This document shows, piece by piece, positions 43,484 through 50,123 of a stretch of 64,000 bases of DNA (position 1 is the stretch's first letter; every line of letters starts with the position of its first letter). The notes below the pieces were generated by a model, which saw nothing but the letters and a program-made list of their open reading frames with translations, was not told the origin of the DNA and did not search any database. The DNA lies in the IMG/VR virus record IMGVR_UViG_3300009031_000221, positions 64,001-128,000 of that record; one strand, 5' to 3'. The position numbers were made by a program, and so were the translations under genes. The DNA comes from a virus. Lineage: Duplodnaviria; Caudoviricetes.

Positions 43484-43577
43484 CCTATACCTCGCACAAG
43501 CGATCCGCTCTGTGAGAGAGTGGGTATAAGGAACCTACCCGATGAAAATAGGGGTACAGTTTCCCCGGAGGTCACAT

Positions 43578-44570
43578 ATGCTACCAGCCCGCCTGAAGAA
43601 GTTCGCCAACAAACCAATCAAAGTCCTGGATGACGGGCATGTTCAACTCATTTCCGTAATGGATGATGAACAAGGCATTATCGATGCGGCTCGAGTTAGC
43701 TACGGGGCGGGAACCAAACGAGCGATGGAAGACCGGGCACTTCTCCGATATTTACTCCGTCACGGGCATACGTCGCCATTTGAGATGATCGAAATCAAGT
43801 TCCGCGTCCGCGTCCCTATGGATTGTTGGCGACAATGGATTCGGCATCGGACTGCCAATGTGAATGAATATTCCACCCGATATTCAGAAGCGATCGATTC
43901 CACGTCTACCACGGAACCCTATGCTTGGCGCCTTCAGGCCAAGGACAACAAGCAAGGGTCAGCGGGGTTCATGGACACCTGGGTAGACGGGTTTGCCCGC
44001 CCCCCGACTGAAGCCGAAACGGGAGGCATCGATTTCCCCTTCGGTGGTTGGGTTGGCCAGGATTTCTACATCAGCCCTGGTAGCTACCTGAGCGAACGGG
44101 AAGCCGAACTTCACCGGATGGCACGAGAAGTCTACGATGAACGATTGAAGTTCGGCATCGCCCGCGAACAGGCACGCAAAGACCTCCCATTGTCAACCTA
44201 CACAGAGGCATATTGGAAATGCGATTTACATAATCTCCTCCACTTCCTGAAGCTTCGGCTTGACCCACACGCACAGCTAGAAATTCGGGTATACGCGGAA
44301 GCTATGGCTACTATCGTCAAGGCCTGGGTTCCTACTGTATGGGAGGCCTTCGAGGATTACTCCCTCAATGCAATGCAATTCTCCCGAATGGAATTGGAAG
44401 GGTTGGCGTGGATTCTCAGGGACAGCATTGCGGGATTTGACCCCCATTGTGTCCCATCCGATAAAGCGGTAGAATCCATGTTGACTGGCGCTATAAAATC
44501 ATCCGGTATCCCCAAAGGTCGGGAACAAACCGAATTCAAGGACAAGCTAATCAAGATCCTCAGGAAATAA
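43578..44570 (+). CDS. thyX: Flavin-dependent thymidylate synthase
   Basis: GHTSPFE, RHRTANVNEYSTRY signature, AREQARKDLP and AQLEIRVYA motifs; start re-called at 43578 (GGAGG SD). Confidence 0.95.
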   Translation: MLPARLKKFANKPIKVLDDGHVQLISVMDDEQGIIDAARVSYGAGTKRAMEDRALLRYLLRHGHTSPFEMIEIKFRVRVPMDCWRQWIRHRTANVNEYSTRYSEAIDSTSTTEPYAWRLQAKDNKQGSAGFMDTWVDGFARPPTEAETGGIDFPFGGWVGQDFYISPGSYLSEREAELHRMAREVYDERLKFGIAREQARKDLPLSTYTEAYWKCDLHNLLHFLKLRLDPHAQLEIRVYAEAMATIVKAWVPTVWEAFEDYSLNAMQFSRMELEGLAWILRDSIAGFDPHCVPSDKAVESMLTGAIKSSGIPKGREQTEFKDKLIKILRK

Positions 44571-44572
44571 TT

Positions 44573-44908
44573 ATGGAAATCGAACTCTACTACTATCGAA
44601 ACAATTCAGGTATGGTCGCGGTATCCGCCGACGAAGGGGACACTATCATCGTCCCTACAGGGAATGTTTTACCCCCTTCAGCAGCCTGGGAGGAAGTTCA
44701 GGAGGATTTGCGATCGGAATTGAATGCCGTGCAAGAAGCCTCCGTGAAACGATTCATAGAAAACTATGATGATTCCCCAGTGGCGGGTGTCGTTCGGAAA
44801 TTCGCCCGCAATCGTGCTATTCAAGAACGGCTCGATGGGATTGAACATGAACGGGTCTACCGCAAGTTGCCCGCAGATGTTCTTGTTGTCGTCGCAGAAT
44901 TCGACTAG
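44573..44908 (+). CDS. Hypothetical protein
   Basis: 111 aa, 2 nt after the thyX stop, AGGA SD. Confidence 0.7.
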   Translation: MEIELYYYRNNSGMVAVSADEGDTIIVPTGNVLPPSAAWEEVQEDLRSELNAVQEASVKRFIENYDDSPVAGVVRKFARNRAIQERLDGIEHERVYRKLPADVLVVVAEFD

Positions 44909-44916
44909 GAGTTTCC

Positions 44917-45138
44917 GTGGAAAACGTAAATCTGAAAGATCTGATGGGAGACGTGCCCTATCACACAGTTTCCCGCTTTGAACGGGAAGTGGAAGTGTAC
45001 AAGCAAAACCAGTATCCGAAATCCGAAGTAATACTCCACAACGAACATGTTCTCATTGAACGGATTGACATGGGTCCAAGCCACGTGTGGTCCGTCATGA
45101 ACATGAAGGGCTTGGATAAGCTTCGTTTGGGAAATTGA
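44917..45138 (+). CDS. Hypothetical protein
   Basis: 73 aa, GTG start with AGGAG SD. Confidence 0.65.
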   Translation: MENVNLKDLMGDVPYHTVSRFEREVEVYKQNQYPKSEVILHNEHVLIERIDMGPSHVWSVMNMKGLDKLRLGN

Positions 45139-45311
45139 CGGGCGGGCTAGCTATCATCGGGGCTTGCCACCAGGGCGTACCCCTCAACCGTCCCCACTCA
45201 CGCTACCGTCATCGCGAGCCCAATCCAGGGCCTGGGAGTGTTGTTTCCAGGTGACTAGCCTGATTCATCGTCGGGGTACCACCCCCAGACTAGGCGGTGT
45301 CACCCGCCGCC
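45137..45311 (-). ncRNA. Candidate structured non-coding RNA (~175 nt, unassigned class)
   Basis: Fills a 207-bp intergenic gap; predicted +1 of the conserved promoter is the first base of a 5'-3' closing stem (GGCGGCGGGU/GCCCGCCCGUC); several internal GC hairpins. Confidence 0.55.
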
Positions 45312-45317
45312 TCTCTA

Positions 45318-45345
45318 TCTACGCACTTGACAGGAGAAGTAAGTC
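45318..45345 (-). promoter_or_regulatory. Conserved phage promoter motif, copy 1
   Basis: GACTTACTT-N13-CGTAGA; identical elements and spacing to the copies at 49759 and 50096. Confidence 0.65.
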
Positions 45346-45921
45346 ATGCCTGTTCGTGTTATTGGCCCCAAGGATGCCACCACCGAAGATGAACTGGTCA
45401 TCAACACCACGTCCAGATCAAAGAACTGGTCGCAAGGTTTGAGCCCCTTCTTCCTCGGGCCTATCCCTCTATATGTTGGTGCCGTCGTACCTACCGCTAC
45501 CAATATGGAGAACGCTTGGCAATATGCCAAGGTCTATCCAGAGCAACTTACATGGGAAGGATTGCCAACAGAATCCTACTTCGCCTGGGCCAAAGCTGGA
45601 TGGTCAGACCCTCGAGCACAACGGTATCCGAAAGGCAAAGGCCGTGTCCCTGCATTCACATGGTGGGCGGGTGAAAAGTTGGATTACGTCACGGCACGGA
45701 AACGAATCTACTTCCCCCTGTACGCCCACGCCGTCGCATCTACGCCTGCATTTGCTCAACTGCGGGCGCTCTACCGACAAACCGGTCAAGTGACCCTGTG
45801 GGACTTCGACGGGTATGATCATACGGCATTAGGGATGACCATGAAGGATGTCCTGAATGAACCCAAACGAAAGATGGGTCATGCCTTTGTAATCGCACAC
45901 CTGTTGGAGTCGTTGAAATGA
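45346..45921 (+). CDS. DUF6939-like protein, possibly NADAR-related ADP-ribose hydrolase
   Basis: LSPF, MENAWQYAKV (compare NADAR E-x-x-Y-Q-x-x-K), LDYVTARKRIYFPLY and GHA motifs; ATGA-coupled to the ARH gene. Confidence 0.55.
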   Translation: MPVRVIGPKDATTEDELVINTTSRSKNWSQGLSPFFLGPIPLYVGAVVPTATNMENAWQYAKVYPEQLTWEGLPTESYFAWAKAGWSDPRAQRYPKGKGRVPAFTWWAGEKLDYVTARKRIYFPLYAHAVASTPAFAQLRALYRQTGQVTLWDFDGYDHTALGMTMKDVLNEPKRKMGHAFVIAHLLESLK

Positions 45922-46880
45922 CTTATACCATTGATCAGAAATCGCGCCGCTGGGGAGCATTGTTTGGACAAGCCATTGGAGATTCTTTAGGAATCCGGGA
46001 TGAATTCCTGCACCCATCTGTCATCGCGAAGGCAGGCCGGGATCGCCTTCAATATGTACCGTCATCTCGAAATGGAGATTCGGAATTCCAAGCCGGAGAA
46101 TGGTCAGATGACACCGAGCAAGCATTGTGCCTATTGCAAAGTTACGTCGATGACCGTGAAATAGTCCCCACCACTGTTGCCAAACACCTATTGGACTGGC
46201 TAGAACGAGATGGTCGTGGATGTGGGTCGCACACCCTGATGATGCTGAATGACCCCGTGTTTTCCCTAAATCCCATTGCTTGTTCCCAGGACGCTTGGGA
46301 GAGATCAGGGCAACACTCCGCAGCTAATGGTGCGGTCATGCGTGTTAGTGTCATCGGCACCCTGCGACCAAATGACTTGGATTGGACTGAAAAAGCCGCT
46401 GCCACATCAGCCCGGATCACGCACTACGATCCTCGTTGTGTTGCATCATCCGTCGCAGTAGCTATTGCTATCGCAATGTTGATTCAAGGGCATACCATTC
46501 AAGATGCGATCAAAGAAGCAGGGATTCGGGCATCTGCCATTCACCCCGAATCTATCAAATACATGAATATGTCATTAGAAGAAATGAATTTGTCTGAAGG
46601 GTTGATCCCTGGTAAATGGAACATGAAGTCCAAGATTGGCTATACCTACAAGACCTTGGGTGCGGGTTTCTGGGCATTGCGTAATCTAACGGAAACCAAG
46701 GATTTCGGCAAAAGCCTTGACCCCATTCTTGCCGCCGGCGGCGATGTGGATACCAATGCGGCGGTTGCTGGCGCACTACTTGGGGCGGCATTAGGGTTGA
46801 CTCAGATGCCTCCATACCTCATCCAGGGTATCCGGGAGCATGATAAACTCATGACATTGGCAAAACAGGCTTGGGCATGA
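45918..46880 (+). CDS. ADP-ribosylglycohydrolase (DraG/ARH family)
   Basis: GALFGQAIGDSLG, WSDDT, ANGAVMR and GGDVDTNAAVAGALLGA motifs are intact. Confidence 0.92.
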   Translation: MTYTIDQKSRRWGALFGQAIGDSLGIRDEFLHPSVIAKAGRDRLQYVPSSRNGDSEFQAGEWSDDTEQALCLLQSYVDDREIVPTTVAKHLLDWLERDGRGCGSHTLMMLNDPVFSLNPIACSQDAWERSGQHSAANGAVMRVSVIGTLRPNDLDWTEKAAATSARITHYDPRCVASSVAVAIAIAMLIQGHTIQDAIKEAGIRASAIHPESIKYMNMSLEEMNLSEGLIPGKWNMKSKIGYTYKTLGAGFWALRNLTETKDFGKSLDPILAAGGDVDTNAAVAGALLGAALGLTQMPPYLIQGIREHDKLMTLAKQAWA

Positions 46881-47281
46881 ATCGGCGATACCGCAAACCT
46901 CGGGATCCTAACAAACCCCCGGATCTTCGAGTTTGGTGGGTGTACGTTATACAGTCCCTTGAAACCCGATTCGGAAAACGTGGGAATCAACTACCAGGAT
47001 TCCACTATGTCGGGTGCACTACAGAACCTTCACGCCGCATTCGAATGCACAACGGGGAGATTGCAGGCGGAGGGCGCTATACCTCCATGCATCAACCCTG
47101 GGTGCCCCGGGCGCTATTCGGACCCTACACCGGGCAATCGGAAGCATTGAAGGCTGAGCGGGCATTGAAGCACGGCAAACGGGGAACTGACCGAGTCCAG
47201 TGGAAGCCGGAAGATTCCCCCTGGTGCCGTGGGGAAGGCCCGAATCATCCGTGGGTTTTAGACCCTACGTGGAAAGCCTAG
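46877..47281 (+). CDS. SLX1-like GIY-YIG endonuclease
   Basis: VYVIQS...HYVGCTTEPSRRIRMHNGEIAGGGRYT...PW...ALKAE; ATGA overlap start at 46877. Confidence 0.85.
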   Translation: MNRRYRKPRDPNKPPDLRVWWVYVIQSLETRFGKRGNQLPGFHYVGCTTEPSRRIRMHNGEIAGGGRYTSMHQPWVPRALFGPYTGQSEALKAERALKHGKRGTDRVQWKPEDSPWCRGEGPNHPWVLDPTWKA

Positions 47282-50095: not shown

Positions 50096-50123
50096 TCTAC
50101 GCCGATGTCTGGGAAAGTAAGTC
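50096..50123 (-). promoter_or_regulatory. Conserved phage promoter motif, copy 3
   Basis: GACTTACTT-N13-CGTAGA pointing into the micro-ORF cassette. Confidence 0.7.

Follow-up and report, generated by a model that had tools for sequence, protein, structure and literature searches.

The classical short cis-antisense RNAs of phages are the OOP RNA of lambda and the sar RNA of P22, which are 69-77 nt in length and end at defined intrinsic terminators. Phages also carry morons, promoter-bearing units located between conserved genes and normally consisting of a protein gene and a terminator. In virulent Pseudomonas phages, phage-specific promoters directed against the coding strand produce antisense RNAs with defined start sites; examples mapped by ONT-cappable-seq are the phage-specific promoter P001 of LUZ19 and the antisense RNA species of PAK_P3, phiKZ and YuA (PMC10914365). 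Antisense and non-coding units driven by phage promoters are already known as a kind, and the locus described here plausibly belongs to it.

The window, i.e. the whole stretch of 64,000 nucleotides that was analysed, corresponds to bases 64001-128000 of one virus record of 536,053 bp, which is rated complete and comes from groundwater metagenomes. Within it, a plus-strand island reaching from thyX to a GIY-YIG nuclease gene (Table 1) is set in a mostly minus-strand region and is followed by a minus-strand gene encoding an RNB-dsRBD exonuclease. An earlier, sequence-only reading had proposed that a promoter-driven structured RNA of about 175 nt is hidden antisense in a gene-free gap of this island, at 45137-45311. 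The coordinates and letters given there proved accurate, and the gap between the 73-aa and DUF6939 genes indeed contains no credible ORF. The two genes bordering the gap can be taken as real, because protein-level conservation in sister phages is seen for them or for their neighbours, and the ORFs antisense to the 111-aa and 73-aa genes can be taken as shadow frames, since both of these genes have protein-level homologs in the sisters. DNA of the insert was present in four DNA runs, all from one groundwater study, which are probably the source of the assembly, and the insert was unchanged across the four runs except for one minor variant in a hairpin loop (Table 1). The island ends at about 47218-47263 (+) in a canonical intrinsic terminator made of a GC-rich hairpin and a TTTT run, which falls within the GIY-YIG 3' end and the beginning of the convergent RNB gene.

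Table 1. Features of the gap and of the plus-strand island (positions in the window)
Feature	Positions	Strand	Remarks
thyX	43542-44570	+	island gene
111-aa gene	44573-44908	+	protein-level homologs in sister phages
73-aa gene	44917-45138	+	protein-level conservation in sister loci; a minus-strand transcript would enter it antisense
Whole insert (gap), 207 bp	45139-45345		65% GC; single copy; missing from all syntenic sisters
19-codon micro-ORF	45209-45268	-	MNQASHLETTLPGPGLGSR; stop 45211-45209; ATG 47 nt past the -10-like box
Second hairpin	45255-45292	-	CUAGUCUG-GGGG ... CCCC ... CAGGCUAG; minor population variant 45281 A>C in loop
Leader stem-loop	45293-45311	-	GGCGG / 9-nt loop CGGGUGACA / CCGCC; begins 5 nt after the -10-like box
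Bipartite promoter	45316-45345	-	GACTTACTT 45345-45337, 12-nt spacer, GCGTAGATA 45324-45316; 0 mismatches
DUF6939 gene	45346-45921	+	first of the DUF6939 / ADP-ribosylglycohydrolase (ARH) / GIY-YIG block
ADP-ribosylglycohydrolase (ARH) gene	45918-46880	+	island gene
GIY-YIG nuclease gene	46871-47281	+	last island gene

The words adjoining the gap are strongly over-represented in the genome and make up a bipartite motif. A search of the genome for GACTTACTT-N10-14-GCGTAGATA, allowing up to 2 mismatches per 9-nt half, gave 129 matches; of which, 125 have a spacer of exactly 12 nt and 27 are exact, compared with an estimated 1e-5 or so exact copies expected by chance. The site at 45345-45316 is one of the 27. 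Members of the class precede protein genes, with the same-strand start codon a median of 37 nt past the -10-like box (interquartile range 26-47), and also several tRNA/tmRNA clusters; the motif recurs at equivalent places in sister phages. Judged by these features of its sequence, the site is a genuine phage promoter. The promoter claim of the earlier reading, which had known four copies in the window, is thus strengthened by the perfect match and by the approximately 125 copies in the genome. What the class leads one to expect, and what is absent here, is a gene soon downstream on the same strand; only a frame of 19 codons follows, and the next same-strand gene is 1.8 kb away. For the plus-strand island itself, no copy of the GACTTACTT-N12-GCGTAGATA class was found.

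The upstream half of the promoter lies directly next to the start codon of the DUF6939 gene, which is divergent to it, and the promoter spacer is the reverse complement of the GGAG ribosome-binding site of this gene. Where a start codon abuts the promoter half on the other strand in this way, the ribosome-binding site of that gene falls inside the spacer. The compact divergent layout, with a start codon 0-2 nt from the upstream half of a class promoter on the opposite strand, recurs at several sites (the junction 45346/45345 in the window; L011:7173, L012:7361 and L032:7503; 446226 and 477844 in the genome).

Behind most promoters of the class there is a short G-rich hairpin at +5 to +8, and the loop word RGAYGA/GGRTGA occurs in the first 30 nt of 27 of the 125 leaders, compared with 3% of random 30-mers. 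The hairpin at 45311-45293 carries the word GGGTGA at the class position and belongs to these 27. By position and loop word, the first 19 nt of the predicted transcript are a class-typical leader hairpin, and transcription would start at about 45309-45312. Such a recurrent hairpin could be a binding or stability element common to a subset of transcripts. One subset of leaders has the form GGGCAC-RGAYGA-UGCCC and begins about 7 nt past the -10-like box, for example at 445240(+), 444323(+), 243988(-) and 408844(-) in the genome.

Copies of the class are concentrated at 207-530 kb of the genome and are lacking in the structural-gene block of the window; the window copies, all on the minus strand, are located at 45345-45316, 49786-49757 and 50123-50094. 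Class promoters with no nearby gene occur elsewhere, at 491771(-), 242514(-), 241734(-), 492760(-) and 501236(-) in the genome (loci L022-L024). At 491771 a canonical terminator consisting of a hairpin and a T-run lies within about 20 nt of the promoter, so that a tiny RNA may be made there. Behind the promoters at 242514 and 492760 there are words resembling a tRNA T-arm (GGTTCGA...), which were called by neither ARAGORN nor Rfam (E<=0.1). ARAGORN identified 69 tRNA/tmRNA genes in the genome, noted for 208-260 kb and 483 kb, including a tmRNA at 225791-226190, a putative suppressor tRNA with the anticodon tta at 483473-483562 and a tRNA-like gene with a 4-base anticodon call at 213498-213586; at L026:264-403 the Rfam tRNA model matches over 140 nt, which may represent an intron-bearing tRNA. 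A scan of viral contigs with the promoter pattern gave 0 matches, and a scan of metagenome contigs gave 4 loci, one of which resembles a fragment of a sister phage; none of the 4 contains the gap sequence. The promoter class, with its approximately 125 copies, its retention in the sisters and its use in front of tRNA clusters, provides a transcription map for this phage clade and is the more solid by-product of the analysis.

Two ORFs with a Sigma70_r4 domain, of 209 and 179 aa, were found at 162101-162238 (-) and 497316-497423 (-) in the genome (loci L035 and L036), the first of them above the Pfam cut-off; no Sigma70_r2 match was found. Both ORFs are candidates for the phage sigma-like factor that serves the promoter class. 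The genome showed no detectable beta-subunit domain of RNA polymerase, and a search for a single-subunit (T7-like) RNA polymerase is uninformative, as it gave no signal in any control genome either. From the presence of the Sigma70_r4 domain and the lack of a detectable beta-subunit domain, we infer that the class sites are read by the host polymerase together with a phage sigma-like factor.

To describe the gap itself, its six frames were translated. The sole ATG frame is the minus-strand one of 19 codons; its ATG is as far from the -10-like box as is typical of the class but has no clear Shine-Dalgarno sequence. The plus-strand frame is open and rich in arginine and proline, of the kind expected in GC-rich DNA. 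No paralog or homolog of the micro-ORF peptide or of the gap frames was found in the genome or the sister loci, and independent gene calls on identical contigs left the gap empty. The GC content of the gap is 65%, compared with 52% for the genome, which places it in the top 0.4% of 177-nt windows; the minus strand is 37% G, and the phage tRNAs, with 56% GC, lie below the gap. The insert is present in a single copy in the genome. Several other candidates were rejected. Read-through of stop codons across the gap, which is in frame and 69 codons long, would have to pass five stops of mixed type; no tRNA or tmRNA was found in the gap by ARAGORN; a retron msr-msd was discarded as no reverse transcriptase lies downstream, a DGR template repeat as there is no second copy in the genome, and a MITE as the insert is single copy.

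The comparison with sister phages showed that the gap is confined to one lineage. The closest DUF6939 proteins are 80, 79, 73, 73 and 71% identical to that of the island, and the closest ARH protein 71%; all are encoded in syntenic islands of sister megaphages. Six sister lineages (L011, L012, L013-15, L016, L032 and one contig given without DNA) have no gap: in every syntenic locus the upstream gene ends at most 2 nt from the DUF6939 start or overlaps it, and in the alignment the insertion falls precisely after the 73-aa stop codon and before the DUF6939 start codon. Absence from the same junction in close relatives is also the mark of a moron. Synteny upstream of DUF6939 genes, which the sequence-only reading had pointed to as a way to homologs, yielded no homolog set, as the gap was absent in every relative. 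Nine IMG/VR loci with DUF6939 homologs showed neither the upstream gap nor nucleotide similarity to it, and no relative of the gap was found in 29 related loci, in the phage's own genome or in other windows of the same survey. Exact-word scans with three gap words found nothing in viral, metagenome or genome contigs, BLAST of 44500-46000 against GenBank phages gave no match, and viral contigs yielded no relatives when scanned for the 73-aa or the ARH protein. We concluded from the alignments and the coding analysis that the gap is a non-coding, lineage-specific insertion. Neighbouring genes also vary among the sisters. The ARH gene follows the DUF6939 gene here and in L032, is placed in L016 between thyX and the 111-aa gene, and is missing in L011-L013; thyX is reduced to a 39-nt remnant in L011; and a GIY-YIG gene is called at the island end in most sisters, L013 and L016 excepted.

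To evaluate the proposed structured RNA, the 175-nt minus-strand sequence was folded and compared with dinucleotide shuffles. Its minimum free energy (MFE) is -71.6 kcal/mol, compared with -72.2 +/- 4.5 kcal/mol for the shuffles (z 0.13). The MFE structure is multi-branched, is closed by a stem of 5 bp and belongs to a diffuse ensemble: its frequency is 0.004, and the centroid is mostly open and very unlike it. The 3' 114 nt, i.e. two-thirds of the sequence with four of the hairpins listed by the sequence-only reading, are less stable than their shuffles (z +1.19); for the 5' 62 nt the z is -0.97. There are 12 helices of at least 7 bp, compared with 10.2 +/- 3.2 in shuffles; the longest, of 13 bp including G-U pairs, is equalled in only 2.6% of shuffles. 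The complementary segments that had been described as helices do exist, but these counts and the overall z do not put them above chance. A terminal stem of 10 pairs with one bulge, such as had been drawn between 45311-45302 and 45147-45137, arises in 7.6% of shuffles, which is chance level, and it clashes with the class leader hairpin, whose bases it also uses. The leader hairpin is the better founded of the two, since it matches the class in leader position and loop word. As to the suggested conformational switch, the segment 45295-45280 has three mutually exclusive partners, and the switch is one of many exclusive pairings of this G-rich segment, a sign of promiscuity rather than of design. 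Mildly non-random stability is confined to 45240-45319, which includes both 5' hairpins and folds on both strands. It is more unusual on the plus strand (z -3.3 with our own script and -1.84 with the folding tool). The plus-strand fold is also the better defined one, with the MFE structure identical to the centroid (z -1.35).

With the Rfam covariance models, no family reached its gathering score anywhere in the window, and a relaxed search of 44900-45500 at E<=10 gave no relevant match; thus the RNA is not of a described family, as had been stated before. The features of Y RNA or YrlA were not found: the Ro (TROVE) domain PF05731 is absent from the 536-kb genome in a search with positive controls, and there is no Rfam match. 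Nor were those of 6S RNA, with no 6S-type Rfam match at E<=10 on 44900-45500 and with a multi-branched, diffuse predicted fold in place of a rod with a large central bubble flanked by stable stems. For the ribozyme and decoy readings no evidence was found. A discrete structured RNA of about 175 nt is not supported, given the chance-level folding energy and the lack of a terminator that would set a 3' end at 45137. Of the proposed undescribed phage ncRNA, then, a non-coding minus-strand transcript stays plausible, and the special structured RNA is unsupported; the claim of a novel structured RNA, potentially the exciting part, has at present no support.

The 3' end of the putative transcript deserves separate consideration. 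The genome contains about 146 canonical terminator candidates. On the minus strand from 45311 to 43484 (about 1.8 kb), both a tool scan and our own scan found no intrinsic terminator, and the hairpin with a U-run that ends a self-contained sRNA gene is missing from this strand. Since no terminator is present, transcription would continue across the 73-aa, 111-aa and thyX genes in the antisense direction until stopped by other means. The geometry is that of a cis-antisense unit, as the promoter lies opposite plus-strand genes and its downstream stretch overlaps them. An untranslated minus-strand transcript that starts near 45310 with the class leader hairpin is likely, because the promoter is a consensus member of a class that also makes stable RNAs and no gene lies downstream.

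We tentatively favour, with somewhat less than even confidence, the explanation that the gap is a lineage-specific insertion whose promoter makes a cis-antisense RNA against the plus-strand mRNA reaching from thyX to DUF6939. The best-supported mechanism, likewise tentative, is a cis-antisense or convergent-transcription effect on the plus-strand island. According to this model, the insertion placed a consensus left-facing promoter, at its right end, between two plus-strand genes. The polymerase, probably that of the host under the direction of a sigma-like protein of the phage, would start at about 45310 and make a non-coding RNA whose length is not set by any intrinsic terminator and which might be stopped early by Rho. 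This RNA would be perfectly complementary to the intercistronic part of the thyX/111-aa/73-aa/DUF6939/ARH/GIY-YIG mRNA just upstream of the DUF6939 ribosome-binding site and, if Rho did not stop it early, also to the coding parts of the 73-aa, 111-aa and thyX genes. It could act in cis as an antisense RNA, or the effect could come from convergent transcription; the outcome would be that the island is uncoupled or dampened while the promoter class is active, or that the duplex is marked for cleavage. The multi-helix fold of 175 nt is not needed for this model and is unsupported. Several points weigh on the model. Six syntenic sister lineages lack the element, so that it does not represent a conserved regulatory arrangement and may be neutral; an antisense role leaves the unusual composition of the gap (65% GC, 37% G) unexplained; and the plus-strand island has no class promoter of its own.

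The possibility that the insert is such a neutral relic or recombination scar, with a promoter, leader hairpin and first codons brought from another genomic context, and maybe transcribed with no selected function, appears somewhat less likely to us but is a serious rival. It would then have entered during the gene shuffling in the island, beside the GIY-YIG nuclease gene. The presence of the insert in one lineage only, where the order of neighbours is itself variable (three states for ARH, one loss of thyX), is in keeping with a relic, as are the chance-level folding, the missing terminator and the layout of a class protein gene, with promoter, hairpin and an ATG 47 nt on, whose frame ends after 19 codons. 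However, there is no sign of decay, since the promoter is one of only 27 perfect copies among the 125 and four samples carry the same insert. The 65% GC is unlike the coding DNA of the phage, no source copy or paralog was found in the genome or any relative, and at least the right end of the insert is in use, because the DUF6939 ribosome-binding site lies there. It is unlikely that the promoter serves a discrete, structured ncRNA of about 175-200 nt acting in trans as a decoy, regulator or ribozyme. A real promoter whose class also drives stable-RNA genes would suit such an RNA, and so would the G-rich transcribed strand, with a GC content above that of the phage tRNAs, the exactly intergenic position, like that of a small self-contained module, and the rarely matched 13-bp helix. 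Against it stand the folding results (no excess stability overall, worse than shuffles in the 3' two-thirds, a diffuse ensemble, and a chance-level terminal stem in conflict with the class leader hairpin), the lack of a terminator or defined 3' end, the absence of an Rfam match even at E<=10 and of a homolog in any collection searched, and a genome that does not encode the Ro/TROVE partner. A recently acquired version of it, a self-promoted trans-acting ncRNA gene whose product is processed rather than terminated and possibly works with neighbouring RNA-centred genes (DUF6939/NADAR-like, ADP-ribosylglycohydrolase, RNB-dsRBD exonuclease), for instance as a counter-defence decoy or guide, is quite improbable; if true, it would be the founding member of an undescribed class of phage RNA.

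Translation of the micro-ORF into a tiny peptide, or a leader-peptide sensor, we regard as very improbable. The distance of its ATG from the promoter, 47 nt, falls at the edge of the class interquartile range of 26-47, and the context of this start, where G(ACG)ATGAAT comes after a GGGG...CCCC hairpin, is like that of the start behind the promoter at 50123. But unlike most genes of the class it has no AGGA/GGAG site at the usual 5-9 nt, there is no same-strand gene downstream for it to regulate, and no homolog of the peptide was found. We give least credit of all to the reading in which the plus strand is the functional one, carrying an intercistronic hairpin or weak terminator together with a new ribosome-binding site for DUF6939, and the minus promoter is incidental. 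The better-defined fold of the plus strand, the hairpin region 45240-45319 that is more unusual on this strand, a weak terminator-like site at 45224-45246 (+) and the DUF6939 GGAG site inside the insert speak for it; yet the z-scores are modest, an 18-nt promoter core with no mismatch cannot be there by accident, and sister phages express DUF6939 without such an element.

If transcribed, the gap would represent an antisense or non-coding unit, young and restricted to one lineage of uncultivated megaphage (536 kb), arising from a consensus promoter dropped between genes, and would help to understand how huge phages rewire the expression of auxiliary gene islands. Compared with known systems, the locus shares with 6S RNA a length of about 180 nt, 5' and 3' ends that can pair and a promoter of its own, but differs from it in its diffuse, multi-branched fold, its lack of a 6S-type Rfam match even at E<=10 and its lack of conservation. 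Like a moron, the insert lies exactly between genes that abut in relatives, has its own promoter and deviates in base composition; unlike a moron, it has no credible ORF and no terminator. With OOP and sar it has in common a small unit with its own promoter, convergent at a gene end and complementary to the sense mRNA, but those RNAs end at a terminator and this one has none. The antisense RNAs of Pseudomonas phages have been observed in experiments, and throughout the genus of LUZ19 its antisense promoter is conserved (PMC10914365), whereas the present unit is predicted from sequence and its promoter is missing from all sisters. What it shares with the antisense RNAs of LUZ19, PAK_P3, phiKZ and YuA is a promoter directed against the local coding strand, from which an untranslated transcript would overlap the sense genes.
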